In this document: one piece after another, positions 3,467 to 51,828 of the stretch
Position numbering within the stretch: position 1 is the first letter of the stretch
Layout of the letters: every line of letters starts with the position of its first letter
Source: Alphaproteobacteria bacterium
GTDB taxonomy: Bacteria > Pseudomonadota > Alphaproteobacteria > RF32 > CAG-239
Reading direction: 5' to 3'
Assembly (NCBI GenBank): GCA_045602545.1
Contig: JAZSBR010000036.1
Coordinates: 31,279-95,278, forward strand
Length of the DNA stretch: 64,000 bases
Program-made: the position numbers and the translations under genes
Notes under the pieces: model-generated
The model's database searches: none
What the model saw: only the letters and a program-made list of their open reading frames with translations
Told to the model about the DNA's origin: nothing

Positions 3467-3488
3467 TTTTAAATATTTTCGTATCTGT

Positions 3489-3848
3489 TTATTTCGCAAG
3501 AGCTGCTTTGGCAGTTTCTACCAACTTAGCAAAAGCTTGGGGCTCTTTCAAAGCGATATCGGCCAAAACCTTACGGTCAAGTTCAACACCGGCTTTATTC
3601 AGCCCGCTCATAAATCGAGAATAAGTCATATCATACAAACGTGTGGCGGCGTTAATACGTTGAATCCACAAAGAGCGGAAAGTTCTTTTCTTTGCTTTTC
3701 TGTCACGATATGCATATTGCAGACCTTTTTCGACTTTTTCAACAGCTACTCTGAAAACGTTTTTATTGCGACCTCTGTAACCTTTAGCCATACCCAAAAT
3801 TTTCTTGTGGCGAGCGTGAGCGGTCATTCCTCTTTTAACACGAGACAT
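3489..3848 (-). CDS. rplT: 50S ribosomal protein L20
   Basis: 119 aa, [35 protein letters not shown]… is the canonical L20 N-terminus. Adjacent to rpmI. Confidence 0.97.
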
Positions 3849-3862
3849 ATTTCAATCCTCCC

Positions 3863-4057
3863 TTAAATAAACGGTAAAAACTTTTTAACAAACTTGTTGG
3901 CGGCAGATATAATAACCGAACCACGTGCTTGTCTTTTTTGTTTTGTAGGTTTGTTGAAGAGAAGGTGTCTCTTGAACGAATGTTTTCTTGTTAATTTGCC
4001 TGTACCGGTAACGCCAAAGCGCTTTGCGGCGGCTTTTTTAGTTTTTATTTTCGGCAT
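3863..4057 (-). CDS. rpmI: 50S ribosomal protein L35
   Basis: MPKIKTKKAAAKRFGVTGTGKLTRKHSFKRH… Start moved to the internal ATG at 4057 because the AAGGGA Shine-Dalgarno lies inside the 5-codon ORF-track extension. Confidence 0.9.
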   Translation of the reverse strand: MPKIKTKKAAAKRFGVTGTGKLTRKHSFKRHLLFNKPTKQKRQARGSVIISAANKFVKKFLPFI

Positions 4058-4140
4058 TTGATTCCCTTTCAAAAAATCTGGAATTTACACAAAGCTGTCA
4101 GGCATGCCTTCTTATCGCCCGAACAACCAAAACGAAGGCC

Positions 4141-4168
4141 TTTATACCACACATTTTTAAAAATGCAA
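4141..4168 (-). promoter_or_regulatory. putative sigma70 promoter of rpmI-rplT
   Basis: Minus strand TTGCAT-16 nt-TATAAA, about 80 nt upstream of rpmI. The leader contains a GGCCUUC…GAAGGC hairpin, a possible L20 autoregulatory site. Confidence 0.45.
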
Positions 4169-4205
4169 GTGTTTTTTTTGCTTTATGTCGCAAAAAGTCT
4201 TAAAG

Positions 4206-5231: not shown

Positions 5232-5498
5232 TTTATTTTCCTTCTTTAAAAATTAAAACTAATTTAGCATAAAAGAAAAATCGCCCCAAAAGGCGACTGG
5301 AAGTTGGAAACTATACTTATCAGATAGTGTGATTTATTCGCAAACCGAGCGGTTTCTTATTTCGTCACCTTCCAATCATACGAATATGACTGAAAATTAA
5401 ACTATCCTCACATAAGGATGGATAAGTATGAGGTTTCCACACCTCCGAGCCTTTTATGCTCATTTCCGATTTTAGCTGATTTTACTATTTAAAGTCAA
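5232..5498 (-). promoter_or_regulatory. class-1 structured leader, copy A, with its promoter
   Basis: Minus strand: TTGACT(5498-5493)-18 nt-TAAAAT(5474-5469), then an RNA starting near GAGCAUAAAAGGCUCGGAGGU and ending in UCGCC/GGCGA hairpin + UUUUUCUUUUAUGCU (plus 5266-5297). It aligns with copies at 23915-24164 and 30889-31125 with compensatory changes. Confidence 0.7.
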
Positions 5499-9972: not shown

Positions 9973-11301
9973 TCACTTCTTAAAAGTAATCACCACGAAG
10001 TTATCGTTTCCGTCATGAAGCCACTCAGCCGCCTCTGCCGGTGTCCAACGTTTTTTGGCGAATGGGTATTCACTCCAGCATTGCTTATCCCACTCAACAA
10101 ATCCGGAAGCGCAAGGAACACTGCCATCAGTGTTTTTTCTTGAGCAGCCGGCACCACTCCAGCCGTAATTACCGGAGCATTGTGAAGGACTGGTTGCCTC
10201 AGAAATGCGGCTTGAATCTATGCAACCACTTGAGCAATTGCATGTCGCATTTGCCGGACATCTTGGATCATCAGCAGAAAAATATTTTGCCAGTTTTTCA
10301 TAACAGGTGTTTAAACCACCTTGGCAAACGATATTTACGCCCTCTGGAAGTTCCCTAAAGACCCGACTGTTCCACCCTTCTGTATTAATATTATCAGGAA
10401 TTATAATACTTTCTAAACCTGAGGCATCATGAAAGGCGCCCTCTCCGATACCTGTAACACCTTCCGGAATCGTGATGCTGGTTAAACCGGTGGCATTATA
10501 AAAGACATTATCTCCGATACCTGTAACACCTTCCGGAATCGTGATGCTGGTTAAACTGCTGGCATTCAAAAAGGCACTACTTCCGATACTGGTAAGCGAA
10601 TCCGGAAGCGTGATGCTGGTTAAACCGCTGGCACTATTAAAGGTATTAATTCCGATACTTGTAACACCTTCCGGAATCGTGATGCTGGTTAAACTGCTGG
10701 CACCATAAAAGGCCTGATCTCCGATTCTGGTAACCGTATTCGGAAGCGTGATGCTGGTTAAACCGCTGGCATTACTAAAGGCACTATTTCCTATTTTAGT
10801 AAAATTACTACTGGAATCAAATGATACGGAAGTTATATTTGGGTTTGCATAAAACGGATGCTTGGTGTCAGCAGTGTCGCCGGAATAATAACCATTAACA
10901 CCACCAACATTTTTCCATTCGTAAACATTCCTGCTCGCCACTTCACCACTACCATATAAAGTTACGGCACCGTCTGTTGTTTGAGTGTAATAACAACTTC
11001 CTCCACAGCTTTTGCACTCCATTGACTCGGCAATACACCCTGTTCCGCAGACTTTCTCTCCGCTTTTGCAACTATCCGCAAAGGCTGTGGATATGTTGAG
11101 GGAAAGGAGGAGGGCAAATGCGGTCATCTTGAGGGTCGAACGAAGTGAGTGCCCGTAAAGATCTCTTTTTGCAGAGTAACATTGCGTTTTAACTCCGTCA
11201 TTGACAACAGACTCTACACTTGCTCCGGAGATCTTGACACCCGCTTCGGGGTTCAAGATGACAGCGGATTTATTTTTTTCATTTTTCTTAATTTCAAACA
11301 T
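9973..11301 (-). CDS. secreted BspA-type LRR protein with family C-terminal module (paralog 2)
   Basis: Six near-identical 23-aa LRRs (LTSITIPEGVTGIGDNVFYNATG…). C-terminus KKRWTPAEAAEWLHDGNDNFVVITFKK. AGGAG SD 8 nt before the ATG at 11301. Hydrophobic signal-like segment MTAFALLLSLNISTAFA begins only at residue 59. Confidence 0.8.
   Translation of the reverse strand: MFEIKKNEKNKSAVILNPEAGVKISGASVESVVNDGVKTQCYSAKRDLYGHSLRSTLKMTAFALLLSLNISTAFADSCKSGEKVCGTGCIAESMECKSCGGSCYYTQTTDGAVTLYGSGEVASRNVYEWKNVGGVNGYYSGDTADTKHPFYANPNITSVSFDSSSNFTKIGNSAFSNASGLTSITLPNTVTRIGDQAFYGASSLTSITIPEGVTSIGINTFNSASGLTSITLPDSLTSIGSSAFLNASSLTSITIPEGVTGIGDNVFYNATGLTSITIPEGVTGIGEGAFHDASGLESIIIPDNINTEGWNSRVFRELPEGVNIVCQGGLNTCYEKLAKYFSADDPRCPANATCNCSSGCIDSSRISEATSPSQCSGNYGWSGAGCSRKNTDGSVPCASGFVEWDKQCWSEYPFAKKRWTPAEAAEWLHDGNDNFVVITFKK
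10380..10800. repeat. tandem 69-bp (23-codon) repeats encoding the LRR units
   Basis: The unit ctccgatacctgtaacaccttccggaatcgtgatgctggttaaac recurs at 10443 and 10512, with diverged copies out to about 10800. Period is 69 bp. Confidence 0.8.
11121..11264. mobile_element. 144-bp nested-palindrome (MITE/RPE-like) element lying in frame in the 5' end of paralog 2
   Basis: Terminal inverted repeats gtcatcttgag…/…ctcaagatgac. Each arm is itself a hairpin (aucuugaGCCCcgaagcGGGCgucaagau). The same element is at 51326-51469, and the arm architecture resembles the element at 40331-40453. Confidence 0.6.
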
Positions 11302-11612
11302 TTTAGTTCTCCTATTAAAAAAGGTTGTTTAAAAATTCAAATGCCCTCTGTTTTTACAGCGGGCGGGGAGTTGAACAATCATGTTGACAGTAATGACTCC
11401 TACATCCTTTAGCATTTAAAAATACTTGTACATACGACATAGGCTCCCCAACCAAAGTGGGGATTTTGGATACAAAAAAACAGCATCCGAGGGACACTGA
11501 TTTAATGTACCTCTGTCAACAAAGAGCCGTTCAAAGCCCCGAACCCGAAGGTTCTTAAAATGATTTTCATCATTCTGCATGGTATGCTAGCAGAAAAAAT
11601 AAAAAATGTAAA
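11302..11612 (-). promoter_or_regulatory. class-2 structured leader, copy E, with its promoter
   Basis: Minus strand TTTACA(11612-11607)-17 nt-TAGCAT(11589-11584). Conserved blocks GAAUGAUGAAAAUCAUU, GAACCUUCGGGUUCGGGGCU, AUCCCCACUUUGGUUGGGGAG, and AACUCCCCGCCCGCUGUAAAAACAGAGGGC + U-rich tail. Confidence 0.7.
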
Positions 11613-14552: not shown

Positions 14553-16361
14553 TTAATTATGGAAGTATTTATATATTTTTTCCGCTACTTTTTTGCTGAT
14601 GGTATCAACTTTCATTAACTCAGCAACACTTGCACTCTTGATTTGTTCCACCGAGCCGAAAAAGTTTAAGAGCAAATTCTTGCGTTTTGCACCGATTCCT
14701 TTAATTTCATCAATTTGAGATTTGAAAATTGATTTTGTGCGCTTTTTGCGATGTGTGCCGATGGCAAAACGATGCGCCTCATCACGCAGGTTTTGCATAT
14801 AAAAAGCAATCGGAGAGGCAAACGGAAGCGAAAAACTTTCATGCCCCAAAATATGATAAAATTCTTTGCCGGCATTGCGTTCCGGACCTTTGGAAATGGC
14901 AATAATCGTGATTTCCGACAAATCATAATCTTTAAGGCTTTCATGAACGGCATGAAGTTGCCCCAAACCACCGTCAAGCAAAATCACATCAGGTTTGTTT
15001 TCCGGAGCCATATGCTCAAAACGGCGGTGCAAAACCTCTTTCATCATGGCAAAATCATCATTCGTGTTTTCGGTATATTTGATGTTAAAAGTGCGATACG
15101 ATTTTTTATCAAATCCGTCGGGAGTTGCCACCACCATTGCCCCCACGGCAAAGCTACCCTGATTATGCGAATTATCATAAATTTCAATGCGTTCCGGAAA
15201 TTTCGGTAAGCCGAAATATTGTTGCATTTCATAAAGATTTTCTTTTACGCTTGCAGTTTCGGCAATTTTACGTTCAATGGCGGCGAGGGCGTTTTCTTTT
15301 GTTCGCTCAATCAGTTTTTGCTTGTTGCCCTTTTGATAAGTATTGATTTTGGCGCCGATTGCCTCTTGCAAAAAGTCGGAATTTTCCGGCATAACGGACA
15401 CGATTATTTCTTTTGGCGGTGTGCGCTCGGCATAAAAAGAACTCAAAAAAGCCTCCATGATTTCAGCATCATCAAGTTCCCAAGTATTTTTCGGAAAATA
15501 CGGAACATTTCCGCAATTTTGACCGGCGCGAATGAAAAACACCTGAATGCAAACCATATTTTTATGCTTAATCACGGCAATGATATCGGCAGAAGAAATT
15601 CCGGCATATTCCACATTATAACCGCCCTGAATCGCGCTCAAAGCCTTTATTCTGTCGCGCAAAATCAAAGCCAATTCAAAATTAAGATTGTTGCTGGCTT
15701 CTTGCATTTTTGCCGAAAGTTCTTCTTTATATTCGGTATTTTTACCCTCTAAAAAGGCAATCACTTCATTAACCGATTTGAGATAATCTGCTTTTGAAAT
15801 TTTGCCGACACACGGCGCACTGCAACGCTTTATCTGATAAAGCATACACGGACGCTCGCGATTGTGAAACATGGAATCTCGGCATGAACGAAGTCCGAAA
15901 ACTTTTTGCACGATATCAATCACGCTGTTGACGGCCGAAGCACTGGCAAACGGTCCGAAATATTTTATTTTATTGCTTTCACGCGCACCGCGACTTTTAC
16001 GCAAGGCCGGAAATTCTTCGTTCAAATTTATCATTAAATGCGGAAAAGTCTTGTCATCTTTTAATAAAATGTTATATTTCGGCTCCAACTTCTTAATTAA
16101 GTCATTCTCCATTAGAAGGGCTTGAGCCTCATTTTCAACAATAATAAATTCCATGCGTTCAACTTCTGAAACCATACGTTTTATATGGTCAGGCAATTTA
16201 TCAAAATGCGTATAGGCGACAATGCGTTTTTTTATGCTTTTGGCTTTTCCGACATAAAGCACGCGGTTGTCTTTATCAATCATGCGATAAACTCCGGGGT
16301 TAAGCGGAGCAATTTTTACATTATTTTTAATGACTTCAATTCCGTGTTTGATATCGGGCAT
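14553..16361 (-). CDS. uvrC: excinuclease ABC subunit C
   Basis: 602 aa. GIY-YIG N-terminus (GVYRMIDKDNRVLYVGKAKSIKKR) and C-terminal HhH (…IKGIGAKRKNLLLNFFGS…). Confidence 0.95.
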   Translation of the reverse strand: MPDIKHGIEVIKNNVKIAPLNPGVYRMIDKDNRVLYVGKAKSIKKRIVAYTHFDKLPDHIKRMVSEVERMEFIIVENEAQALLMENDLIKKLEPKYNILLKDDKTFPHLMINLNEEFPALRKSRGARESNKIKYFGPFASASAVNSVIDIVQKVFGLRSCRDSMFHNRERPCMLYQIKRCSAPCVGKISKADYLKSVNEVIAFLEGKNTEYKEELSAKMQEASNNLNFELALILRDRIKALSAIQGGYNVEYAGISSADIIAVIKHKNMVCIQVFFIRAGQNCGNVPYFPKNTWELDDAEIMEAFLSSFYAERTPPKEIIVSVMPENSDFLQEAIGAKINTYQKGNKQKLIERTKENALAAIERKIAETASVKENLYEMQQYFGLPKFPERIEIYDNSHNQGSFAVGAMVVATPDGFDKKSYRTFNIKYTENTNDDFAMMKEVLHRRFEHMAPENKPDVILLDGGLGQLHAVHESLKDYDLSEITIIAISKGPERNAGKEFYHILGHESFSLPFASPIAFYMQNLRDEAHRFAIGTHRKKRTKSIFKSQIDEIKGIGAKRKNLLLNFFGSVEQIKSASVAELMKVDTISKKVAEKIYKYFHN

Positions 16362-19879: not shown

Positions 19880-20283
19880 GGTGAATGGCAACTTATAAGC
19901 CGGGTTCTGTATGTCAGAGGTTTATAAAAAAACATAACACGATAGCTATTCATCTGCGTCGAATGTCGCCATCCGACTGGTGCGACCTACCTTTGGAGAG
20001 GAACGGAAACCTTCCCTTTATTCGGACAAGCCGAATCCCCGTTTTTGGTCTTACATCAGACAGGGTTTACCTCAAGCCATAAATATTGCTACTTATGCGG
20101 TGAGCTCTTACCTCGCCTTTTCAACCTTACCGATTTATGATAAAATCGGCGGTAATTTTCTGTGGCACTGTCCCGTGGATTACTCCAGCCAGACGTTATC
20201 TGGTGTCTTGTTTCCGCGAAGCCCGGACTTTCCTCATTATCGGCTTTTACTTGCCGTAACGCAGCCATCCGGTTACCATTCAC
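19880..20283 (-). ncRNA. rnpB: RNase P RNA, bacterial type A
   Basis: Minus strand contains the universal GAGGAAAGUCCGGGCU (plus 20221-20236) and ACAGAACCCGGCUUA (plus 19893-19907). P1 pairing is GAAUGGUAAC (5', plus 20272-20281) with GUUGCCAUUC (3', plus 19882-19891). Also …GGUAAGAGCUCACC… and …GGUAAACCC… modules. Confidence 0.92.
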
Positions 20284-22552: not shown

Positions 22553-23914
22553 TCATTTCTTGAAAGTCAATATAACGAAGTTATTATCATCATTCAACAA
22601 CGGCGCTGCTTCGGCAGGGGTATATTGAATGCGGTTGCAAAATCCACCCATATCTTTATAACCGGCACCACAGCCATTGGCAGAACTTATGCAAACTCCG
22701 TCTTTGCCTAAATAGCCATCTCCGCAACCCTTGGATTCACTAACACAAAGATTATCCTTTAAATAGAAGCCTGCTCCGCAACCTTCGCCATCTTCTCTGG
22801 CAACACATTCATCACCGACTTGTTTTTCGCCATAACCGCAACCAAGATCTGCAGGGAAACAAGATGGGTAACCACTGCTGTTTGTTCCTGCAATGTAGCC
22901 TTCTTTGCATTCAGTAACACAGACTCCATCTTGTAAAGAATATCCTGTATGACATTTTACACAATAAGCATCAGAACTAGATTCACAAACATCTTGCACA
23001 CATTTTTTTTTATTTTTGTATGCTGTATTTGAAACGACATATCCACTAGGGCATTCTTCTACACATCTACCTTCCATCAAAATAAAATCGCCCGTACATC
23101 TATTACACATACCGCCATATATCCAATTTGAAAGACAGTTTACATCCGTGCAATAATTAAATGTTTTACCAGAATAAGGATAAACATAGTTTCGTGTATT
23201 TTCTTTCTGCAGACATTCTTCTTTCGTTATACACCTTCCTTCAATATTATAATAACCATCTTCACATTCCGAGCATGTTCTTGAATCTGTATATGAACTG
23301 CAATGTTTCATTTCTGCGTATTTTTCCTTTAATAAACAGACACCATTAATTTCCAAATAATATCCGCTGTTACAGCCTGTACATTTACCTGTTGTTGCAT
23401 TATACCATGAGCAACCTTCCGGATTCTTTTTACAATTTCCATTTCCCATATAATACCCGCTATTACAACCACCGCATTTGCCTTCATTCACATTGTACCA
23501 TGAACAATTTTCCGGATTCTTTTTACAAACTCCATTTTCCATATAATATCCGCCTTGACAATAAGCGCATTTTCCACCGCTTACACAAGTACCACAATTT
23601 TCCGAACAATTTGATGAATCTATTATTTCTTCACATTTTCCATTTATCGATTCGTATCCGTCTTTACACTCTTCGCAATAAGTATAGTCATCTTCACAAG
23701 CATCACCATCATCATAACAATTCGAATCCTGACATCTTACACATTTTCCCTCGGCATTATGTCCATATCCTTCATCCGAACAGTCATTGCAATATCCGGT
23801 TTCTTGGTCACATGAATCCTCGCTGTAGCAAGGAGAACTGCCGCACATATAATCTGCATAAACAACTCCAGAAAACAAACTGCTTACACATAACATCAAA
23901 AAAAGCTTTTTCAT
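22553..23914 (-). CDS. secreted cysteine-repeat protein with family C-terminal module (paralog 3)
   Basis: Signal peptide MKKLFLMLCVSSLFSGVVYA. About 60 Cys in repeated C-x2-C…GYY…G-x-C units (e.g. CGGCNSGYYMGNGNCKKNPEGCSWYN). C-terminus NRIQYTPAEAAPLLNDDNNFVILTFKK. Confidence 0.8.
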   Translation of the reverse strand: MKKLFLMLCVSSLFSGVVYADYMCGSSPCYSEDSCDQETGYCNDCSDEGYGHNAEGKCVRCQDSNCYDDGDACEDDYTYCEECKDGYESINGKCEEIIDSSNCSENCGTCVSGGKCAYCQGGYYMENGVCKKNPENCSWYNVNEGKCGGCNSGYYMGNGNCKKNPEGCSWYNATTGKCTGCNSGYYLEINGVCLLKEKYAEMKHCSSYTDSRTCSECEDGYYNIEGRCITKEECLQKENTRNYVYPYSGKTFNYCTDVNCLSNWIYGGMCNRCTGDFILMEGRCVEECPSGYVVSNTAYKNKKKCVQDVCESSSDAYCVKCHTGYSLQDGVCVTECKEGYIAGTNSSGYPSCFPADLGCGYGEKQVGDECVAREDGEGCGAGFYLKDNLCVSESKGCGDGYLGKDGVCISSANGCGAGYKDMGGFCNRIQYTPAEAAPLLNDDNNFVILTFKK

Positions 23915-24164
23915 CTTTTACTTCCTTTTCTTTTAAAATTATTTCCATTAGCACAAAAGAAAATCGCCACATAAATTGGCGACTGGAAGCTGATAACTAT
24001 TTCGTATAATATAGTGTAACATATTTGAAGAATTACTTCTTATTCTGCTACCTTCCAGCCATAAAGGATGGAAATTTTTTTAATATTTATACGAAAGAGG
24101 CTATCAGACCTCCGAGCCTTTTATGCTCAAGAAGTATGCTAGCAGAAAAAATCCCTTTTGTAAA
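23915..24164 (-). promoter_or_regulatory. class-1 structured leader, copy B, with its promoter
   Basis: Minus strand TTTACA(24164-24159)-17 nt-TAGCAT(24141-24136), then GAGCAUAAAAGGCUCGGAGGU… …CUUCCAGUCGCCA-loop-UGGCGAUUUUCUUUUGUGCU. Confidence 0.7.
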
Positions 24165-30888: not shown

Positions 30889-31125
30889 TTGATTTTTAAT
30901 TTTTTTTCTGTTAACATTTTTTTAGAGCATAAAAGGCTCGGAGGTATACGAACCTCTTGCAAATATGTCCTTTCATTAAGGATAGTTTTATTTTCAGTCA
31001 TACTTGTATGGCTGGAAGGTGATGAAATAAGAAGGCATGGCTTTGCGAATAAATCACACTATCTAATTTGCAATAGTTCGTAACTTCCAGTCGCCTTTGG
31101 GGCGATTTTTCTTTTATGCTCAAGT
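30889..31125 (+). promoter_or_regulatory. class-1 structured leader, copy C, with its promoter
   Basis: TTGATT(30889-94)-17 nt-TAACAT(30912-17). RNA runs from AGCAUAAAAG (30926-35) to its complement CUUUUAUGCU (31111-20). UCGCC/GGCGA hairpin + U-tract at 31090-31115. Confidence 0.7.
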
Positions 31126-31380
31126 GGCGTAATTTTTAAGAAAAGGACTGTTAAAATGAACAATGTTTTTAATAGAGTGCAAATGCTCGAAACAAATGAG
31201 AATTGCAATAAATTTTCCAAGAGTGTTTCGTATGAAACACTCGTCGGCGGTACGACGACAATCGGCAGGGAGTATGAACAGAATCAGCGGTTGAGTGAGG
31301 GCAGTGCGGATAAACCGCTTTCGGCGGTCGGCACTTTGACATCGTTGCTGTGCAACTCCGCCAAAGTGGAGGAAAAATGG

Positions 31381-32265
31381 TTGCAAATATCGCCTGTATT
31401 TAGGTTGGCAAAAATTTTTAGCTTAGTGGCGGTTTTATCCGTTGGTATGATGAGCGAATCATGGGCAGACTGTTGGGCTACTGAAAACAATCTGATTAAA
31501 AGCTGCTACAATACCTGGGAACCCGGAAAGCCAGACAATTGCGGAGATGGTTGTACTTATACCTACAATAACGGCAAACTAACCGTAACCGCCACTAAAC
31601 CTGGTGCGGTTATACAGCAAGGTATTTTTGCTCTAAGGTATTATGAGGAAAAAGCTGGTTTTCCCAATATAACTAACGTCGAAATAGCCGGTGAATTTGA
31701 TACTATCGGAGGACATGCTTTTTTGAATAATGCCGCTACCATATCCGGAAAAGGCGGAGTTTTATACACAAATAGCATTGATTATAATGCCTTTGGCAAC
31801 GATAATACTTTAACAGGAACAATAATTGTAAGTGATAAACAAACTACTTTAGGAGAAGGACCTTGGTATAATGCAACTCTAAACGCAACCATGATTCTTC
31901 CTCCGACAATTAAATCCATTTCCGGTTGGGCTCTTTATGGTTTGAATTTAGGCTCAAATGCCAAAATTTATTGCGGAGTTGAAAATTGCGAAGAATTGTT
32001 CAGTAATGTTAATTGTGATGCAATCGATGAACAATATTCGACACGGTGTAAAAATAACTTAAACACATTACTTTCTTCCGGTAAATTGCTTGCCTATCCC
32101 GACGGTTGCACGAAAATGGGCGCCTCGGGTTGCACAAAATGCAAAAACGAAAACTTCAAATTAAACGATGGTGAATGCGACCGCTTACGCTATACTCCTG
32201 CCGAGGCGGCGGAGGTGCTGACTGATGATAATAATAACAGTGTGACGATTACGTTTAGAAAGTAA
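31381..32265 (+). CDS. secreted LRR-like protein with family C-terminal module (paralog 4); ORF-track start 31156 probably too far upstream
   Basis: In-frame TTG at 31381 sits 8 nt after GGAGG and yields a classical signal peptide (M)QISPVFRLAKIFSLVAVLSVGMMSESWA. C-terminus DRLRYTPAEAAEVLTDDNNNSVTITFRK. Degenerate BspA-like repeats. Confidence 0.7.
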   Translation: MQISPVFRLAKIFSLVAVLSVGMMSESWADCWATENNLIKSCYNTWEPGKPDNCGDGCTYTYNNGKLTVTATKPGAVIQQGIFALRYYEEKAGFPNITNVEIAGEFDTIGGHAFLNNAATISGKGGVLYTNSIDYNAFGNDNTLTGTIIVSDKQTTLGEGPWYNATLNATMILPPTIKSISGWALYGLNLGSNAKIYCGVENCEELFSNVNCDAIDEQYSTRCKNNLNTLLSSGKLLAYPDGCTKMGASGCTKCKNENFKLNDGECDRLRYTPAEAAEVLTDDNNNSVTITFRK

Positions 32266-40288: not shown

Positions 40289-40294
40289 GCCTTA

Positions 40295-40454
40295 TTTTTT
40301 TTCTGTCATTCCGAGGAGCGTTTTTTTTCTGTCATTCCGAGGAGCGAAGCGACGTGGGAATCTCCATGCATCAAGTGACTCATAAAAAATAGGCATCATT
40401 ATCACATACGGGACTCGCTCAAAGAGATTCCCACGCCTTCGGCTCGGAATGACG
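40295..40454. repeat. intergenic nested-palindrome (MITE-like) element with a perfect 26-bp tandem duplication at its left end
   Basis: ttttttttctgtcattccgaggagcg occurs at 40295-40320 and again at 40321-40346. Left arm gtcattccgaggagcgaagcgacgtgggaatctc (40331-40364) is inverted at 40424-40453 (gagattcccacgccttcggctcggaatgac). Confidence 0.75.
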
Positions 40455-40500
40455 TACCTTTTCCACATAAATAATTATCCACAAGTTTTGGTAAAAAAGG

Positions 40501-40656: not shown

Positions 40657-43600
40657 ATGAAATATTCTAGAACTGCCCTTGGTTTATTGAATGCACAATA
40701 TCGCAGTGTGTTGCGTAAGTGCTTTTTGATAAACATGGGGCTTTTTGCGTTAGGCGCAATTGCCACTCCGGCGAAGGCTGAATATACTACAGTTGATTTA
40801 TCAACAGTATATCCAAGCGGAACAGCAACTGAAACTTTGAAGTACAAGGATGCTACAAATCAAAGCACTAAATATGTTTGGGACGCTGAAAACATAGTTA
40901 TTAGCCCAACGGCAGGTGATAGCAGAGGTATTGACTTAGGTAACATAAGTTATAATGGAAGTGAACCTTACATTATGGATATAGGTGGTGAGAATACTGA
41001 AAGTATTACTATTACTCCGACAAACGGATATGCCATAACTGTATTCAAAGAGAGTGAACTAAACTTGGAAGCTGATGAAATAACGGTTAATGGTATAGTC
41101 CATGCTTCCGATAATACAATGGCTGATTTGGCTAAACATGCGACGGTTAATATTAAAGGTGGTGAGGTTGTTTTAAATGCTGACACTACCTATAAAACTG
41201 CTGTTGAAGCTATGAGTCAAGGTATTGTTAATATTGAAGGCGATACGACAATTACTGGTGACAAGGCAATTTTATCCCGTGGTAACGCTCAAATTAACGT
41301 TAATACAAATAATAACGACAATAAAACTGTTATCAATGGTGATATTGTTTTTGATTATGATCAAGATACTTCGGGTTCTCCAATTGATGCATATGTCAAC
41401 GTCAATTTGAATGGAGAAGATTCGTCTTGGACCGGTAATACATACGTTGATTGGAATACCAAGCCTGAAGAAAGTAAGTTGAATGTTACAAAGTCAACTA
41501 TTACTTTGAGTGATGGTGCCACTTGGAATGCTACAAAAATTGAAAACAATGATGTAGCCACTGATGGTAGCCGTTACACTTCAATCAATAACCTCAACGT
41601 TGATGGTGGTAATGTTAAGTTTAATGAAGCCGGTGCGCAGGTTCAAATTGATAACTTAAAAGTTGGCGCTGATGGTGTAAATGTTACTAAAAATGCTGAT
41701 TCAGATAGAATAGAAGTAAAAACAACAGCTGATTTACGTAATGGTGTATCTGATAGTTATGCCGATATTATCAATGTAAATGATGGTGCTAGTCTTTATG
41801 TTGATGCTGATGCAAGTGGTAATCTTGATGCTGTTGGTGGTAATAAGGAATACATCAAACTTGAAGGTGTTACTTTATTGTCTGCTATGAATTCCGGATC
41901 AACCATTAACACTGCAGGATATGACTTATCATCAGGTAATGCTGCAAAATCATTGGGAGTATATTATGCTGATACTTCAACCGATGGTTCCGGTAACATT
42001 GTTTTAGGTACTAAGCAATCATATACTGACCTTATCGGTATTGAGCAGAATGGTAACTACATCAAAGCTTATAATGCTGCTGATGCTGAAAACACATCTG
42101 TTTCAGCTAACCTGAGCGCATTAGATAATCAAGTTTTTGAAAATGAAACAAACATTGCTCAAAACACAGCTGATATTGCAACAAACACAGATGCGATTGC
42201 ACAAAATACTGCTGCTATTGCCGGTAAGCAAGATACTTTGTCTGAAGCACAGTTGGCAGCAGCTAACTCTGGTATTGATTCAACTAAAGTATCAACCTAC
42301 GATGGTTATGCTGCTCAAATCAGTGCAAAAGCTGATGTGGCAACAACTTATACAAAAGATGAAGTTAATGCTTATGTTGCTGACAATGCCGTTCAAACTG
42401 TTACAACAGGTACAGCCAATGGCACTATTTCTGTTGATGGCTCAAATGTTGCGGTTAAAGGCTTAGGCTCTGCTGCTTATACAGAATCTTCTGCTTATGC
42501 AACAGCGGCTCAAGGCACATTGGCAGAAACTGCAGTTCAGAGCGTTGTTAAAGGTGATAACAACGGTGAAATTAAAGTTGATGGCACAACAATTAAAGTT
42601 TATGATGATGCTGCTCTTCAAGCTGCAGTTGAAGCTGCGCAAACAACAGCTACTAATGCACAATCTACAGCAACTGCTGCTCAGACTGCTGCAAGCACGG
42701 CTAATAGTAAAGCCACTACTGCACAATCTACAGCAACAGCTGCTCAAACTGCTGCCGCTGCCGCTCAAACAGCTGCTAATACTGCCCAATCAACAGCTGA
42801 AGCTGCTCAAACTGCTGCAAGCACAGCTGATGGTAAGGCGGTTGCAGCTCAATCTGCTGCTACTGCCGCTCAAACGACAGCAAATACGGCTGTGACAAAT
42901 GCAGCCTCAGCTCAATCTGCTGCTGAAGCTGCGCAAACAGCTGCTGATACTGCTAATTCAACAGCAAATGCAAATAAGACAGCTATTACAACCTTGAATG
43001 GCAGTGCAAGTCAAACAGGTTCTGTAGCAAATTCTATTGCAACAGCTTTGACATCATACAGCACAACAGATCAAATGAACAGTGCAATCAGTACAGCTAT
43101 TTCAAACGCTGCTTCAAACTATGATGCAGCAGGTTCTGCTGCTACAGCTGAGCAAAATGCAAAAGATTATGCTGATGGTGCTATAGCTGATGAAGTTACT
43201 GCTCGTAACACAGCTATTGGTGCAGCTAAAACTGAAATTTTAGCCGGTACAGGTTATGCCGGTTCTGGTTTGGAAACTGCAGTTGCTGGTACAGCTAATG
43301 CTCAAATTACTGCTTCTTTGAATGGCACAGATGCCGGCACAATCGGAAAAGCTATTTCTGATGCACAAGCTGCTGCTGAAGCTACCGCTGCTACTGCACA
43401 AGATACGGCTGATGCTGCATTATTGAATGCAGGTGGTGCTGCTTCTGCTGCTGCCGCTGCTCAAACAACAGCCAACCAAGCTAAAACAGCTGCTGAAAAT
43501 GCTCAGACTTCAGCTGATGCAGCTAAGGCATCTGCTGATGCTGCACAAGTTACTGCCGATACAGCAATAGCAAATGCAGGTGGTGCTGCTTCTGCTGCTG

Positions 43601-46600
43601 CCGCTGCTCAAACAACAGCCAACCAAGCTAAAACAGCTGCTGAAAATGCTCAAAGCACAGCTGATACTGCTGTCGCAAATGCCGCAACTGCACAAGACAC
43701 AGCTAATGCTGCATTATTGAATGCAAGTGGTGCTGCTTCTGCTGCTGCCGCTGCTCAAACAACAGCCAACCAAGCTAAAACAGCTGCTGAGGTTGCTGAT
43801 GGTAAAGCCGTTGCAGCTAAAGCATCTGCTGATGCAGCCCAAGTTACAGCTGATACAGCAATAGCAAATGCAAGTGGTGCTGCTTCTGCTGCTGCCGCTG
43901 CTCAAACAACAGCTAATCAGGCAAAAGACAGAGCAGATCATGCTTATGCATTGGCTGAAAAAGCAGAAGGTGATGCCGCACAGGCTCAAACAGCTGCTAA
44001 TCACGCACAAGACACTGCTAATGAAGCAAAAGAGGCTGTCGGTGATGTTTCTAAATTTGCTCAAAGCACAACAGGCAATATCTCTAACTCTGTTCCTGGT
44101 TCAGGTACAAATGCAACCAACGCTTCTGCTGCTATCGCCAATATAGACGCTACAATCGGTCAAATCCATGGCTTGGCTTCTACTATTACCGATGCTGCAG
44201 GTGCTAAAAACTTAGAGCAAGGCTCAACAGTAAGCGGTCACTTGCTTGCTTTAGCAGCTTCTATCGGTAACAGAACTGATTATACCGGTGCAAATTATCT
44301 TGTAAATAACCAAGATATTGCTACATCACTTACTGTTTTGGATACCGCTATCGGCAATGCTGAAGATAAGAATGATATTCAAGATAATTCTTTGTCAGAC
44401 ATCTATGGCAAGTTGAACGGTGGTAATTATAATAAGACTACCGGTGCTGTTACAGATGCAACTGCTTTATCAACAAACTTCACAGCTACTAATGTTACAG
44501 CTGCTGCAAATGAGTTGTTGACAGATATCACAGTAACCGCTGATGGTAACTACATTACAGCCGGTGCTGATGTTAAAGGCAATTTGAGTGCTTTGGACGG
44601 TCAAGTTAAGGACAATGCCGATAATATCGCTTCAACAATGGCTTTGGTCGGTACAACTTCCGCACCGAAGACGGGTCATGGCATCTTAGCTGGCAAGACC
44701 ATTACTGGTACTGCCGGTACAGATAACCTCAATATGGTTGATGCCATTGATTTTGTCGCTGCCAATGCGGCCGGCTTGAATGTGGATAATGTTTACTCCG
44801 GTAAAAATACATTCGGTACAACATCAGGTAGCCAAGTTATCATTGATAACGGCGGCAACTTGACGGTTAACCATGATTTGACAATCGGTAAAGCAAACGC
44901 TATCAGCAGCACAGCAACCGGCAAATTGGATATGGGTGGCAACACATTGCTCAATGTCCAAGGCTTGACCTTGACAGACGGCTCAGGCCACACAGCAACG
45001 TTGGCAGCTACCGAAAACGGTATCAACACCGGAAACGCTGACCTTGACGTTGGTACAGGTGCTTTAAAATCTCAAACTTTGTATGTCGGTACAACGGATC
45101 AATTCTCAGTTGACGGATCAGGTAATGTCAGTACATCAGGTACATTGGATGTGACGGGTAAAGCAACTGTCGGCTCACTTGATATCGGTACAACAGGCAA
45201 GGGCTTTGATGCAACCGGCAACTTGACTGCAGGTACAATCAATGCAACTGGTATCGACACCACAACTGCCAATACAGTTAAACTCGGTGGTACAGGCTTT
45301 ACAACGGCTGTTACCGGCGATATGACGGTCAGCGGTACGACGACTTTGACTGATTTGACCGTGACGGGTGATACCACTTTGGATGACTTGACGGTCAACG
45401 GTAATACGAGTTTGAAAAATACTACCGTGGACGGTACTTTGGAAGTAACCGGTGGTGCTATATTCGGTGATAAGACAGATCAATTTGTTGATATCACGGA
45501 TGGTGCTATTACCGTTCATGATGGTACAGGTTCAACCAATATCACAGCAAGTATTGCCAACAATGGCAATATCACAACCAAAGGTGCTTTAGAGGTGGCA
45601 GGTCTTGCTTCACTCAACGGTGGCATCAATGTCAATGACAAGTTTGAAGTTAGCGGTACAGATGGTACGGTTACATTAACCAACGGTACAAACACTGCTT
45701 CTATTGCTATGACTGACGTTAAGGTTGCGACGGATGATCCGCTCAATCCTGAATCTGTTACTAATGTTATGAAAGTAACGGGAACAGGTTTGTTTACGGG
45801 TGATGTTGTTTCTGAGTCTGGATTTACTATTGCTCAGAAGAATGGTGTCGATCAGTATGAAGTTAAATTCTCTGTTGATGACGATGGCAATATCGATACA
45901 TTAGGTACATTGTCTGTTGCCGATGACAAATTCACGGTTGACGGTTCAGGCAATATGTACGCCGCAGGTGATGCTGATATCGACGGCGACTTGTCAGTTG
46001 GTGATAAGTTCAGCGTAACTTCTGCTGGTGGTTCGTTCAGCGCAGCTGGTGGTGAATTTAAAGTCGATGGTGACGGAAATACCAAAATAAAAGGTGCAAT
46101 GGCCGCCGGTAAAACAGGTACGGAATTTAAAGTCGGCTTAAGCGGTAACATCTCTGCCGCGTCAGGCAACTTTACTGTTGATAAAGACGGTAACGTAACA
46201 GCTCAGGGTGACTTGGGTGTGTATGGTACATCTTGGTTGAAAAACACCAATGTTGATGGTGCTTTGGCTGTGACAGGTGATACAACTGTTGGTCAGAACT
46301 TCGCCGTTGCCGGTAATTCATACTTGCACAACACTTCTGTTGACGGCGCTTTAGCTGTTACAGGTACATCTTGGTTGAAAAACACCAATGTTGATGGTGC
46401 TTTAGCTGTGTCAGGTGATTCTACAGTTGGTCAGAACTTCGCTGTTGCCGGTACTTCTTACTTGCATAACACTGTTGTTAATGGTGATATGGCTGTTAGC
46501 GGAACAACAAAGACAACTGCTTTGACATTTAATGGTGAAAGCTATGTTGCCGCTATGGATCAAGGCGATGCCGCTATTACTAACGGTACTGTTGATGATC

Positions 46601-47679
46601 AGGCTAAACGTACAATGGCTACAAATGCAACTGTTGCCAAGACGGTTGGCAATTTGAATTCATTGACCACAGCCGCTAACGGCGTTACCAGTGCAAACGA
46701 TGTTGCTGATGCAATCAACAGCTTGGGAACAAACGTTGAAACCGCTACCGGCGGAACTTTCGCAGCTAACGGTGTATGGACAGGCAGTATAGACGGTAAA
46801 GTTGACGATGGTACAGGTTCGTTGGTTGATAGAGCCGTTGCTTATGGCACAATCACTGATAATAATATCTTAGATGTTGTTGATAGCTTGTATGCTAATG
46901 TTGGCAATACTGCTGTTACCGGTACAAACGATAATATCTTGAGCACAAATACGGTTAACCAAAACTTAGATCGTATTGACTCTAAGATTGGCGATATCAG
47001 AACTTTGAATGGTAATGCCTTGAATAAAGGTACGACAACTCAGCCGACAACCGTTGTTGCTGCTTTGCAGAACATTAACGACTCTATCGGTAAAGTTCAT
47101 GGCTTGTATGATGGTTCAACTGTTAACAGCACAACTGTTGCTTCAACAGTTAACGGAAACTCTAACTTGATGGCTGTTGCCGGCGGTGTTTCTACTGCTG
47201 AAGACCATTTGGTAAGCTTAGATAACGCTATCGGTGACAGAACATTGGTAAGCAAAAATACGGCTATCAATGATGCAATGAGCGGCGAATCTGTTGCTTC
47301 CGGTTTGAAAGCTGCCGGTGATGCAATTGGTGATATGAACTTCACTGGTTCTCACTATGTTGCAGGCAACAACGACTTGTCCGGTGCTGTAAGAAGCTTG
47401 GATAGCAACCTCTATCGTGTTGAATCTGATTTGCGTGATTTAAGACGCGACTTCAGACGCGGTATGGCTTCTATGTCTGCTATGTCTGCTTTGGTTCCTA
47501 ACCCGAGAGCTCACGGAAATACTTCGCTTGCTATCGGTACAGGTGCTTATGACGGTCATACAGCTGCTGCTATCGGTGGTTTCCACTATCTCACAGACAA
47601 CATTATGCTTAATGCCGGTGTGGCTTGGGGTAACTCCAGCGACGCTGCATATCGCATGGGTGTAACGTTCTCTTGGTAA
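40657..47679 (+). CDS. trimeric autotransporter adhesin (YadA-type C-terminal anchor), 2340 aa
   Basis: Long signal region MKYSRTALGLLNAQYRSVLRKCFLINMGLFALGAIATPAKA, Ala/Thr/Gln-rich coiled-coil stalk repeats, and C-terminal …MASMSAMSALVPNPRAHGNTSLAIGTGAYDGHTAAAIGGFHYLTDNIMLNAGVAWGNSSDAAYRMGVTFSW (YadA anchor pattern ending in an aromatic residue). Confidence 0.9.
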   Translation: MKYSRTALGLLNAQYRSVLRKCFLINMGLFALGAIATPAKAEYTTVDLSTVYPSGTATETLKYKDATNQSTKYVWDAENIVISPTAGDSRGIDLGNISYNGSEPYIMDIGGENTESITITPTNGYAITVFKESELNLEADEITVNGIVHASDNTMADLAKHATVNIKGGEVVLNADTTYKTAVEAMSQGIVNIEGDTTITGDKAILSRGNAQINVNTNNNDNKTVINGDIVFDYDQDTSGSPIDAYVNVNLNGEDSSWTGNTYVDWNTKPEESKLNVTKSTITLSDGATWNATKIENNDVATDGSRYTSINNLNVDGGNVKFNEAGAQVQIDNLKVGADGVNVTKNADSDRIEVKTTADLRNGVSDSYADIINVNDGASLYVDADASGNLDAVGGNKEYIKLEGVTLLSAMNSGSTINTAGYDLSSGNAAKSLGVYYADTSTDGSGNIVLGTKQSYTDLIGIEQNGNYIKAYNAADAENTSVSANLSALDNQVFENETNIAQNTADIATNTDAIAQNTAAIAGKQDTLSEAQLAAANSGIDSTKVSTYDGYAAQISAKADVATTYTKDEVNAYVADNAVQTVTTGTANGTISVDGSNVAVKGLGSAAYTESSAYATAAQGTLAETAVQSVVKGDNNGEIKVDGTTIKVYDDAALQAAVEAAQTTATNAQSTATAAQTAASTANSKATTAQSTATAAQTAAAAAQTAANTAQSTAEAAQTAASTADGKAVAAQSAATAAQTTANTAVTNAASAQSAAEAAQTAADTANSTANANKTAITTLNGSASQTGSVANSIATALTSYSTTDQMNSAISTAISNAASNYDAAGSAATAEQNAKDYADGAIADEVTARNTAIGAAKTEILAGTGYAGSGLETAVAGTANAQITASLNGTDAGTIGKAISDAQAAAEATAATAQDTADAALLNAGGAASAAAAAQTTANQAKTAAENAQTSADAAKASADAAQVTADTAIANAGGAASAAAAAQTTANQAKTAAENAQSTADTAVANAATAQDTANAALLNASGAASAAAAAQTTANQAKTAAEVADGKAVAAKASADAAQVTADTAIANASGAASAAAAAQTTANQAKDRADHAYALAEKAEGDAAQAQTAANHAQDTANEAKEAVGDVSKFAQSTTGNISNSVPGSGTNATNASAAIANIDATIGQIHGLASTITDAAGAKNLEQGSTVSGHLLALAASIGNRTDYTGANYLVNNQDIATSLTVLDTAIGNAEDKNDIQDNSLSDIYGKLNGGNYNKTTGAVTDATALSTNFTATNVTAAANELLTDITVTADGNYITAGADVKGNLSALDGQVKDNADNIASTMALVGTTSAPKTGHGILAGKTITGTAGTDNLNMVDAIDFVAANAAGLNVDNVYSGKNTFGTTSGSQVIIDNGGNLTVNHDLTIGKANAISSTATGKLDMGGNTLLNVQGLTLTDGSGHTATLAATENGINTGNADLDVGTGALKSQTLYVGTTDQFSVDGSGNVSTSGTLDVTGKATVGSLDIGTTGKGFDATGNLTAGTINATGIDTTTANTVKLGGTGFTTAVTGDMTVSGTTTLTDLTVTGDTTLDDLTVNGNTSLKNTTVDGTLEVTGGAIFGDKTDQFVDITDGAITVHDGTGSTNITASIANNGNITTKGALEVAGLASLNGGINVNDKFEVSGTDGTVTLTNGTNTASIAMTDVKVATDDPLNPESVTNVMKVTGTGLFTGDVVSESGFTIAQKNGVDQYEVKFSVDDDGNIDTLGTLSVADDKFTVDGSGNMYAAGDADIDGDLSVGDKFSVTSAGGSFSAAGGEFKVDGDGNTKIKGAMAAGKTGTEFKVGLSGNISAASGNFTVDKDGNVTAQGDLGVYGTSWLKNTNVDGALAVTGDTTVGQNFAVAGNSYLHNTSVDGALAVTGTSWLKNTNVDGALAVSGDSTVGQNFAVAGTSYLHNTVVNGDMAVSGTTKTTALTFNGESYVAAMDQGDAAITNGTVDDQAKRTMATNATVAKTVGNLNSLTTAANGVTSANDVADAINSLGTNVETATGGTFAANGVWTGSIDGKVDDGTGSLVDRAVAYGTITDNNILDVVDSLYANVGNTAVTGTNDNILSTNTVNQNLDRIDSKIGDIRTLNGNALNKGTTTQPTTVVAALQNINDSIGKVHGLYDGSTVNSTTVASTVNGNSNLMAVAGGVSTAEDHLVSLDNAIGDRTLVSKNTAINDAMSGESVASGLKAAGDAIGDMNFTGSHYVAGNNDLSGAVRSLDSNLYRVESDLRDLRRDFRRGMASMSAMSALVPNPRAHGNTSLAIGTGAYDGHTAAAIGGFHYLTDNIMLNAGVAWGNSSDAAYRMGVTFSW
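43429..43930. repeat. four tandem 147-bp (49-codon) repeats inside the adhesin stalk
   Basis: gca(g/a)gtggtgctgcttctgctgctgccgctgctcaaacaacagc… begins at 43429, 43576, 43723 and 43870 (exact 147-bp period). Encodes …GGAASAAAAAQTTANQAKTAAENAQ…. Confidence 0.85.
46225..46500. repeat. two tandem 138-bp (46-codon) repeats in the adhesin
   Basis: ggtacatcttggttgaaaaacaccaatgttgatggtgcttt… at 46225 and 46363. Encodes GTSWLKNTNVDGALAV.GD.TVGQNFAVAG.SYLHNT. Confidence 0.8.
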
Positions 47680-50390: not shown

Positions 50391-51503
50391 TTATTTTTTG
50401 AAGGTAATCACTACAAAATTATCGTTGCCGTCATGAAGCCATTTACTTGCTTCCGCCGGTGTCCAGCGCTTCTTTGAAAAAGGTAATTGAGCATAGCAAT
50501 TTCCGTTATAATCGGCATAACCGCTGGCACAAGTTATATTCCCGCTTTCCGGTAATTCGGCACATTCTGTTCCGGTATGGTAATAACTGACATTTTCGCT
50601 ATCACGAGGTGTGTTAAAACATTCTTTGTGATCATCGGCATCAAAGATAATATTGTTACCGCTGATATAAGAAGCTCTTGCGGCAAATTCTGCTATTTTT
50701 TCTTTGCAAATTTCCTGATTTCCTTTGCATTTGAATGTAACAGTTCCATTATCAGAATTATCATTTAAGGCATCATCGTCCCAACCGCTCATATCAATAG
50801 AATCAGGAATAATAATTTCAATATCACCATACGTACGAAGCGCATCACCATCAGTCCAAACAAGAGAATCAGGAATCTCTAAGGTTCGTAAATTATAAGC
50901 ATCACAAAGTGCAAGATTTCCAAGTTTTTCTATTTTTGGCATATTCACGCTTGTTAAAGCATTAGCAGCTTCAAAAGCATAGGCTCCTAATTCAGTAACG
51001 TTCGGCAATTCCACTGTGGTTAAACTCTGCAAATTATCAAAACACTCATCTTCAATAGTGGTTATATTATTGGTGTTTAGTGTTGTTAAATTAGGGACAT
51101 TATCAAAAGTTTCACGAGCGAGAGCCGTAATATTATCACCAAACTCAATTTCGGTTATTTTTTCTTGTTGGTCTCCCCAAGCAATTTCATTATCGTCATC
51201 ATCGTATACCGAATCGCAGCCGGAAAACTCTCCACTTCCATCGATAATCAGCTTTGTTCCTTCCCAAGTGCAGGTTGTTTCTGCAAAGGCTGTGGACAAG
51301 TTGAGGGAAAGAAGGAAGGCAAGGACTGTCATCTTGAGGGTCGAACGAAGTGAGGGCCCGTAAAGATCTCTTTTTGCAGAGTAACATTGCGTTTTGGCTC
51401 CGTCATTAACAACAGGCTCTACACTTGCTCCGGAGATCTTGACGCCCGCTTCGGGGCTCAAGATGACAGCGGATTCATTTTTTTCATTATTTATATCAAA
51501 CAT
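50391..51503 (-). CDS. secreted BspA-type LRR protein with family C-terminal module (paralog 5)
   Basis: C-terminus KKRWTPAEASKWLHDGNDNFVVITFKK. The N-terminal 57 aa are near-identical to paralog 2 and contain the 144-bp palindromic element. Signal-like MTVLAFLLSLNLSTAFA follows. AGGAG SD before the ATG at 51503. Confidence 0.8.
   Translation of the reverse strand: MFDINNEKNESAVILSPEAGVKISGASVEPVVNDGAKTQCYSAKRDLYGPSLRSTLKMTVLAFLLSLNLSTAFAETTCTWEGTKLIIDGSGEFSGCDSVYDDDDNEIAWGDQQEKITEIEFGDNITALARETFDNVPNLTTLNTNNITTIEDECFDNLQSLTTVELPNVTELGAYAFEAANALTSVNMPKIEKLGNLALCDAYNLRTLEIPDSLVWTDGDALRTYGDIEIIIPDSIDMSGWDDDALNDNSDNGTVTFKCKGNQEICKEKIAEFAARASYISGNNIIFDADDHKECFNTPRDSENVSYYHTGTECAELPESGNITCASGYADYNGNCYAQLPFSKKRWTPAEASKWLHDGNDNFVVITFKK
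51326..51469. mobile_element. second copy of the 144-bp nested-palindrome element, in frame in paralog 5
   Basis: ctgtcatcttgagggtcgaacgaagtgagggcccgtaaagatctc … gagatcttgacgcccgcttcggggctcaagatgacag. Collinear with 11121-11264 apart from a few substitutions. Confidence 0.6.
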
Positions 51504-51828
51504 TTCAGTTCTCCTATTAAAAAAGGTTGTTTTTAAAATTTAAATGCCCTCTGTTTTTACAGTGGGCGGGGAGTTCAGAAATCATACAAGAAGAAATGAC
51601 TGTTAAGATCTTTAGCTATAAGCCTGAACATACACCTTAACCTCCCCATCCAATGCGGGGATTTAAAACCAAAAAAAGCGCCTTCAACCTATACCAAAAA
51701 AGGATAAGCAGAAAAGACACCATTTGGGTATCTTCTTGTAAGAGCCTCTGACAGCCCCGAACCCGAAGGTTCTGAAATGATTTTCATCATTCTGTTCATA
51801 AACTAGCAGAAAAAATAAAAAATGTAAA
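51504..51828 (-). promoter_or_regulatory. class-2 structured leader, copy F, with its promoter
   Basis: Minus strand TTTACA(51828-23)-17 nt-TAGTTT(51805-00). Same conserved blocks as copies D and E. Terminator-like GCCCACUGUAAAAACAGAGGGC (plus 51546-51567) + U-rich tail. Confidence 0.65.

Follow-up and report, generated by a model that had tools for sequence, protein, structure and literature searches.

The 64,000-nt stretch of DNA analysed here, referred to as the window, comes from Alphaproteobacteria bacterium GCA_045602545.1 (contig JAZSBR010000036.1, positions 31,279 to 95,278 of the forward strand) and contains three copies, A, B and C, of a ~195-nt leader type that we named class 1a. 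Covariation on the sense strand, predicted promoters upstream, a terminator-like hairpin and the lack of a match in Rfam 15 bear out the preliminary description of this DNA, which had proposed a structured cis-regulatory leader RNA of no known family. The conclusion that these leaders are a previously uncatalogued family of structured cis-regulatory 5' leader RNAs, with a sister class in the same window, is well supported. For class 1a, we favour, by a modest balance of the evidence, a cis-acting leader RNA that would gate read-through of its own built-in terminator by means of a toggle between alternative pairings.

Layout and conserved fold of the class-1a leaders

Each copy has the same order of parts: a sigma-70-like promoter, the ~195-nt element starting with GAGCAUAAAAGGCUCGGAGGU, a GC-rich hairpin and the run UUUU(U)CUUUU(A/G)UGCU, after which come a ~35-nt A/U-rich spacer, a ribosome-binding site (RBS) of the AAAGGA type and the ATG. 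The leaders, scored with a covariance model, R1, that took seven class-1a copies as input, lie with their promoters and genes as follows.

30925-31120, plus strand: leader RNA of copy C, full length, running from the inferred start site through the 3' strand of helix P1; 224.9 bits, E = 1e-61
5266-5461, minus strand: leader RNA of copy A; 208.4 bits
23950-24128, minus strand: leader RNA of copy B, shorter and without hairpin P4; 154.7 bits
30889-30917, plus strand: predicted sigma-70-type promoter of copy C, TTGATT (30889-30894), 17-nt spacer and TAACAT (30912-30917), carrying the core TTTTCTGTTAACAT
5498-5469, minus strand: promoter of copy A, TTGACT-18-TAAAAT, called by the consensus scan
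24164-24136, minus strand: promoter of copy B, TTTACA-17-TAGCAT with an upstream TG, called by the consensus scan
31156-32265, plus strand: gene after copy C (RBS AAAAGGA at 31141-31147, ATG at 31156), 369 aa with BspA-type leucine-rich repeats (LRR)
4206-5231, minus strand: gene after copy A, BspA-type LRR, Pfam LRR_5
22553-23914, minus strand: gene after copy B, Cys-rich with furin-like repeats, Pfam Furin-like_2

The preliminary description had located the copies at these same places, with ranges wide enough to include the promoter and the stretch leading to the RBS. Exactly three instances of the 21-mer GAGCATAAAAGGCTCGGAGGT are found in the window, and none of 100 shuffles contained any match to it. 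The leaders are 69-82% identical in pairwise comparison and the adjacent coding sequences only ~50% at the nucleotide and ~20% at the amino-acid level, as had been noted from the sequence at the outset. The promoter of copy C fell below the threshold of the consensus scan and was inferred from alignment to copies A and B; a search for shared cores found TTTTCTGYTARCAT in copy C, and its core TTTTCTGTTAACAT is common to copy B and the class-2 leaders described below. Transcription is predicted to start at the G of GAGCAUAAAAG, ~7 nt past the promoter. All three copies have a called terminator-like hairpin, where chance would give 0.1-0.4. Since only ~35 nt separate the element from the gene, there is no room for a promoter of the gene's own, and the gene would depend on read-through.

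R1 retrieved ten close copies with scores of 120-225 bits, namely the three in the window and seven from the loci L001, L010, L014, L015, L016, L017 and L018; L numbers denote loci on other contigs, among them contigs traced through homologs of the downstream protein. Over these ten, standard pairs fill 95.4% of the pair cells, and both partners have changed in 30 of the 57 pairs. The covariation score of 0.407 was reached in none of 500 shuffles (0.168) and dropped to 0.04-0.08 when the pairing register was slid. A structure-blind MAFFT alignment of seven copies gave 92.9% paired cells and both-side changes in 21 of the 57 pairs, again with no shuffle among 500 as high. Copy C folds with a minimum free energy (MFE) of -69.7 kcal/mol (z = -7.0) and the opposite strand with one of -53.6 kcal/mol; the 16 kcal/mol advantage of the sense fold, together with the G.U pairs, fixes the strand. 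Overall, the closing helix P1 is followed by a rod of P2 and P3 and by a multiloop with three hairpins, P4, P5 and P6/P6a. The parts of copy C, all on the plus strand, are listed here.

30926-30935 / 31111-31120: P1, AGCAUAAAAG / CUUUUAUGCU, nearly invariant
30935-30945: GGCUCGGAGGU, invariant in all ten class-1a copies
30947-30953 / 31076-31082: P2, UACGAAC / GUUCGUA, 7 bp, compensatory changes in 5/7 pairs
30954-30956: CUC, opposite UA, the internal loop that follows P2
30957-30964 / 31066-31073: P3, UUGCAAAU / AUUUGCAA, compensatory changes in 6/8 pairs
30968-30982: P4 hairpin, UCCUU-UCAUU-AAGGA, which copy B, L001 and L014 lack or have replaced
30991-31018: extended P5 hairpin, UUUUCAG (30991-30997), P5 (30998-31011) and CUGGAAG (31012-31018)
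31019-31057: P6 (GUGAU/AUCAC) and P6a, with loops GAAAUAAGAA and GCGAAUAA, compensatory changes in 5/5 P6 and 4/5 P6a pairs
31012-31018 / 31084-31090: pseudoknot, CUGGAAG / CUUCCAG
31089-31107: terminator-like hairpin, AGUCGCC-UUUG-GGCGAUU, from the terminator scan, followed by the U-tract UUUUUCUUUU

The bulk of the covariation comes from P2, P3, P6 and the variable hairpin P6a that P6 encloses. The outer (P2) and inner (P3) helices, described beforehand as differing in sequence while keeping their complementarity, do so across the copies, and P3 varies in length from 8 to 10 bp. P1 is present as proposed, with a G.U pair in copy B, and L015 adds a compensatory A-U to G-C change in it. Likewise, the invariance first reported for GGCUCGGAGGU extends to every class-1a copy, the small P5 hairpins do have variable loops, the covarying helix P6 (GUGAU/AUCAC versus GUAGC/GUUAC) was verified, and the motifs GAAAUAAGAA and CACUAU are where they had been seen. 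The internal loop of CCUC opposite UAG exists, but CCUC is not strictly invariant, because L017 has CCUU. The most widely conserved part of all is the pair of P6 internal-loop strands, RAAAUAAG / CGAAUAWR, which is retained in diverged relatives. The terminal UCGCC/GGCGA hairpin and its U-tract adjoin the 3' strand of P1 as described, the tail of the U-tract (31111-31120) being that strand itself. The terminator stem also covaries: UCGCC/GGCGA is replaced by UCGCU/AGCGA in L015 and by CCUCC/GGAGG in L001 and L014.

We compared the leaders with known families by means of the 4227 covariance models of Rfam 15. At the gathering threshold, the sole match in the whole window was bacterial RNase P RNA class A (RF00010, 261.8 bits, 19880-20280, minus strand). 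Copies C, A and B matched no family when searched at E <= 10; they gave unrelated matches of 8-22 bits, none common to all three, and none to the cyclic di-GMP (c-di-GMP) riboswitches c-di-GMP-I (RF01051) and c-di-GMP-II (RF01786). These sub-threshold matches (nqrA-II, AaHKsRNA82, Hrs12 and others) were discarded as inconsistent across the three copies; the only family to recur, AaHKsRNA82, did so in two copies and in different parts of the leader. Searches with blastn found no match among plasmids (PLSDB) or phages (INPHARED), and of four matches in a pattern scan of IMG/VR the covariance model confirmed none. Exact-pattern scans of genome and metagenome contigs, with patterns too strict for diverged members, returned nothing or chance matches (L002-L009, below 22 bits over stretches of roughly 30-80 nt). 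The motif is not mentioned in the literature searched or in the first 200 of the 408 supplementary files of Fremin & Bhatt 2021 (PMC8040213). Two other features were considered and rejected: a leader peptide, as the open reading frames (ORFs) have only 2-4 codons and are unconserved, and a hammerhead-like UGAUGA...GAAA in P6, which is unconserved across copies.

Pseudoknot, alternative pairings and terminator

Pairing of CUGGAAG with CUUCCAG makes a pseudoknot, since the first strand is located within the P3 multiloop and the second outside P2. The preliminary description had placed the two strands for a pseudoknot or an alternative pairing with the long helix, and compensatory changes in copies outside the window now support the pairing. 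All pairs are intact in 13 of 13 copies, a set that includes L019, L021 and L023, and three positions are compensated in the variants UCGGAAG:CUUCCGA (L001) and CUGGAGG:CCUCCAG (L019, L021 and L023).

Each of the two strands also has another partner. CUGGAAG can pair with UUUUCAG as an extension of P5, which is predicted in the MFE folds of all ten close copies and covaries in L001 (CCGAC/GUCGG). The GGAGGU within GGCUCGGAGGU constitutes a 5' purine strand able to lengthen the rod by pairing with ACUUCC (31083-31088); this GGAGG:CUUCC extension, stacked on P2, is likewise predicted in 10/10 MFE folds. For GGAGG, which an earlier suggestion had switching by pairing with CCUC, the latter is not the best-supported partner; each of the MFE folds has it paired with CUUCC instead. 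As modelled, CUGGAAG and CUUCCAG thus each have two mutually exclusive conserved partners, which amounts to a switch-like four-strand toggle.

The toggle is situated next to the terminator. The last two bases of CUUCCAG (AG) are the base of the terminator stem, and in all leader groups the 3' strand of the toggle adjoins the terminator with an overlap of 1-2 nt at its base. A classical antiterminator, in which a 5' AAAAGGC, CAUAAA or CGGAGGU would pair with the 5' strand and loop of the terminator, seemed plausible on inspection, but such pairings were no better than in shuffles.

Diverged relatives and a sister class

More distant relatives extend the family to other genes. A variant in eight of the nine loci L019-L027 scores 61-64 bits and precedes a gene for a 175-aa CDA-fold deaminase, so that the family is not confined to adhesin genes; a second terminator-like hairpin was observed between this leader and the RBS. 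The locus L011 has two shorter variants upstream of LRR genes (E about 1e-6), whose toggle strands are CUCC...GGGAGUU...AACUCCC and CUCCUU...GAGGAGUU...AGCUCCUC. In one case the LRR_5 gene behind the short variant leader (2777-4567, minus strand) is followed by a Bundlin/PilS-type pilin gene, an arrangement suggestive of an operon in which adhesin and pilin share one leader. The diverged relative in the window, too, is followed by a type IV pilin-like gene (MRKNNEIGRSMIEMLGVLAIIGVLS...), which starts at 63600 and runs past the window end. All remaining R1 matches in the window were below 12 bits.

63368-63576, plus strand: diverged relative with rod, internal hairpin, pseudoknot GCGGAUGU:ACAUCCGC and terminator; R1 28.4 bits, E = 6e-6
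~15737-15922, minus strand, in L019-L026 (15737-15918 in L021): deaminase-linked leader, GCUCGGAGAC, pseudoknot CUGGAGG:CCUCCAG

All copies whose neighbour could be resolved (A, B, C and 63368-63576 in the window; L001, L010, the two in L011, L014-L017; eight of nine in L019-L027) stand in sense orientation, 24-112 nt upstream of the start codon. The sources of PheS-linked relatives were GCA_016291175.1 and metagenome assemblies, bovine ones among them. The names of the closest annotated homologous proteins point to a lineage of uncultured Alphaproteobacteria known from metagenome-assembled genomes.

The window also contains three leaders of a second type, class 2, with three more elsewhere, each ~255 nt long in the window.

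~11325-11580, minus strand: class-2 leader, window
~51525-51795, minus strand: class-2 leader, window
~58743-58995, plus strand: class-2 leader, window
4858-5110: class-2 leader, L010
17045-17310, minus strand: class-2 leader, L011
4397-4655: class-2 leader, L018

Class 2 resembles class 1a in its promoter core, the protein family downstream, a rod, three multiloop hairpins, the terminator and the toggle, the strands of which are GGGG, CCCC-loop-GGGGAG and CUCCCC with the terminator next to them. Unlike class 1a, it is ~255 nt long, has other conserved nucleotides and lacks the P1 closing helix. P1 is absent from the diverged relatives as well, and both they and class 2 keep the toggle and the terminator. 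RNAalifold found compensatory changes in 22 of 58 pairs over the six class-2 copies. R1 matches one of these six weakly (E = 6e-4), and the window scan at the gathering threshold gave no Rfam 15 match for class 2. The promoter core TTTTCTGCTAGCAT, an extended -10 of the TGnTAGCAT type, occurs at 11584-11597, 24136-24149 and 51800-51813 on the minus strand and at 30904-30917 and 58725-58738 on the plus strand. That this core is common to class 1a and class 2 suggests a joint promoter-leader module.

The genes behind both classes in the window encode six secreted proteins (LRR or Cys-rich) that are otherwise very different and have in common a ~30-aa C-terminus, C..R..(Y/W)TPAEAA..L.DDN.N.V.ITFKK, which in the three behind class-1a leaders reads ..(Y/W)TPAEAA..L.DDN.N.V.(I/L)TF(K/R)K. 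Three have class-1a and three class-2 leaders.

4206-5231, minus strand: ORF after copy A
22553-23914, minus strand: ORF after copy B
31156-32265, plus strand: ORF after copy C, with an internal signal-peptide-like segment and the C-terminus ..YTPAEAAEVLTDDNNNSVTITFRK
9973-11301, minus strand: ORF after a class-2 leader
50391-51503, minus strand: ORF after a class-2 leader
59016-59867, plus strand: ORF after a class-2 leader

Neither Pfam nor NCBIfam gave a match for this C-terminus, which may serve the lineage as a signal for sorting or secretion.

Two further observations concern regions outside these leaders. L019 has at 6405-6880 (minus strand), with equivalents in L020-L027, a ~470-nt region that comprises a TTGACA promoter and an extended 5' untranslated region (UTR), followed by a strain-variable gene for 255-400 aa without a family match; R1 does not match this region, which may be yet another leader type. 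In the window, ~40290-40460 (plus strand) holds a tandem 27-nt unit, TTTTTTTCTGTCATTCCGAGGAGCG, with an inverted partner, CGGCTCGGAATGACG, around the palindrome GGGAATCTCC/GAGATTCCC. This element resembles repetitive extragenic palindromes (REP) or miniature inverted-repeat transposable elements (MITE) and lies upstream of a 2340-aa ORF (40657-47679, plus strand).

Proposed mechanism and alternative explanations

In the mechanism that we propose for class 1a, the nested state, with rod extension, P5 extension and the full 7-8-bp terminator, would be the default and would terminate transcription. An effector, which may be a small ligand, a protein or a physical signal, would stabilise the pseudoknotted tertiary fold. 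This fold would remove the bottom two pairs of the terminator stem, free the 5' GGAGGU and increase read-through into the adhesin gene. After read-through, P1 would close the leader into a three-way junction at the 5' end of the mRNA. The leader is a structured 5' domain supported by covariation, as in riboswitches generally, and has, as in attenuators, a GC-rich hairpin and U-tract between promoter and start codon with no internal promoter.

Several points weigh against this mechanism. The coupling of toggle and terminator in class 1a is weak by calculation: it involves 2 nt, and when these are blocked in copy C the terminator changes from -9.3 to -7.8 kcal/mol, a cost of 1.5 kcal/mol (in the deaminase-linked variant, the corresponding change is from -10.4 to -5.7 kcal/mol, a cost of 4.7 kcal/mol). 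GGAGG:CUUCC is invariant and hence lacks covariation support, and one of its pairs is lost in the deaminase-linked variant. Most copies do have a 5' segment complementary to the 5' half and loop of the terminator, but with z = 0 to -2 relative to shuffles. P1 forms only once the polymerase is past the terminator and so cannot itself decide termination. The downstream genes do not add up to a single pathway: they encode secreted LRR and Cys-rich proteins, a pilin and a CDA-fold deaminase, and offer no clue to a ligand. The leader alignment comprises only 10-13 sequences from one uncultured lineage, and the start site, termination and read-through are all predictions from sequence.

A narrower form of the proposed mechanism is a true metabolite or second-messenger riboswitch, in which the P6 loops and the pseudoknot would be the aptamer for a small molecule, e.g., a cyclic dinucleotide controlling adhesion or pili. 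We regard this sub-case as possible, with the odds tilted against it. The conserved core is sizeable, rich in information and includes unpaired nucleotides that never vary, the pseudoknot adjoins the terminator, and several copies per genome precede adhesin-like and pilin genes. In Clostridioides and Vibrio, c-di-GMP riboswitches have a comparable association with adhesin and pilin genes. However, nothing here resembles any Rfam riboswitch, including the two c-di-GMP classes, and a gene set that includes a deaminase gives no coherent hint of a ligand. At least two leader classes with differing conserved nucleotides serve one protein family, which would be unusual for one ligand and calls for caution about a single-metabolite riboswitch. 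The label "riboswitch", in the sense of direct ligand sensing, is plausible at this stage as a candidate reading. The broadest version, in which class 1a, its diverged relatives and class 2 would found a superfamily of pseudoknotted four-strand toggle riboswitches, possibly sensing a second messenger and gating all of the secreted adhesin-like paralogs and a pilin, is a tentative extension that we would not put on a par with the gating mechanism.

Several characterised systems come close to these leaders. Pseudoknot-terminator riboswitches (ZTP/pfl, fluoride/crcB, preQ1 and c-di-GMP-II) also are promoter-proximal leaders with the 3' strand of a pseudoknot at the 5' base of a terminator, conserved unpaired nucleotides in internal loops and variable, covarying helices. 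The present leaders differ from them in having no Rfam match, a terminator overlap of only 2 nt, no significant antiterminator, and a P1 that encloses the terminator and whose 3' strand is transcribed after the termination point. With the c-di-GMP riboswitches (GEMM-I, RF01051, and c-di-GMP-II, RF01786) they share multiple copies before surface adhesins and a type IV pilin-like gene, whereas the conserved nucleotides are unrelated and one variant precedes a deaminase gene. The class-1a leaders are thus nearest to the former group in working and to the latter in gene association, and belong to neither. Antitermination leaders (the LoaP leader hairpin, Bacteroides UpxY, EAR and put) are similarly long and conserved, serve surface-structure or exopolymer genes and involve terminator read-through. 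They act processively on distal terminators or have a cognate NusG-like gene nearby, whereas here the terminator is inside the element, no linked regulator gene was seen and Rfam EAR did not match.

An alternative explanation, which we consider unlikely though deserving of more weight than those that follow it, is a constitutive 5' UTR module for mRNA stability, processing or translation, with the hairpin and U-tract merely attenuating. P1, or the three-way junction, would then shield the mRNA end, the ~22-bp rod would be a substrate of RNase III, and the exposed GGAGGU could act as a stabilising Shine-Dalgarno element (STAB-SD). Such a role would suit a P1 that pairs the extreme 5' end only in read-through transcripts, a rod whose length is kept while its sequence is free, a GGAGGU that is the perfect complement of the anti-SD next to a weaker real RBS, AAAGGA, and the lack of a significant antiterminator. 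Yet a stabiliser needs neither ~60% invariant positions nor a covarying pseudoknot with two exclusive conserved pairings, and P1 is missing from the diverged relatives and class 2, in which toggle and terminator are retained.

We attach little probability to the idea that termination yields the actual product, a ~185-nt small RNA that acts in trans or sequesters a protein, with incidental read-through. A promoter of its own, a terminator-like 3' end and a compact stable fold would fit such an RNA. Its position, always sense and 24-112 nt before a start codon, too close for the gene to have a separate promoter, does not, nor does P1, whose 3' strand lies beyond the U-tract: this helix, compensatory in L015, would never form in the terminated RNA.

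An element acting as DNA can be practically dismissed, whether as a MITE or recently duplicated cassette kept by gene conversion or as an invertible switch like cwpV of Clostridioides difficile, where inverted repeats enclose a ~180-200-bp segment that is placed between promoter and cell-surface gene and makes a leader terminator: the 10-bp inverted repeat AGCATAAAAG/CTTTTATGCT does bracket a ~175-bp terminator-bearing segment between promoter and surface-protein gene, and the leaders resemble one another far more than the genes do, but all copies have one orientation relative to promoter and gene, the internal helices covary through G.U pairs, which would turn into A.C mismatches on the opposite strand, the repeat of copy B is imperfect as DNA and pairs as G.U in RNA, relatives without the inverted repeat retain the rest of the fold, and copies occur only directly 5' of genes and at no arbitrary sites. 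The constant orientation and the extensive RNA-type covariation are the reasons for rejecting both the invertible switch and the MITE.

If the proposed gating by a built-in terminator is correct, the leaders, of which there are at least seven in 64 kb, would represent a new, large and information-rich family of regulatory RNAs together with a sister class of the same logic. They would be orphan riboswitch or attenuator candidates with unusual traits, namely a closing helix around their own terminator, a covarying pseudoknot beside it and mutually exclusive pairings. The R1 model is directly usable for mining metagenomes and metatranscriptomes. For the abundant uncultured, host-associated lineage of Alphaproteobacteria (gut or rumen) in which the leaders occur, they would be a means of controlling surface adhesins and pili, and would open a way to study how these bacteria change the set of proteins on their surface.

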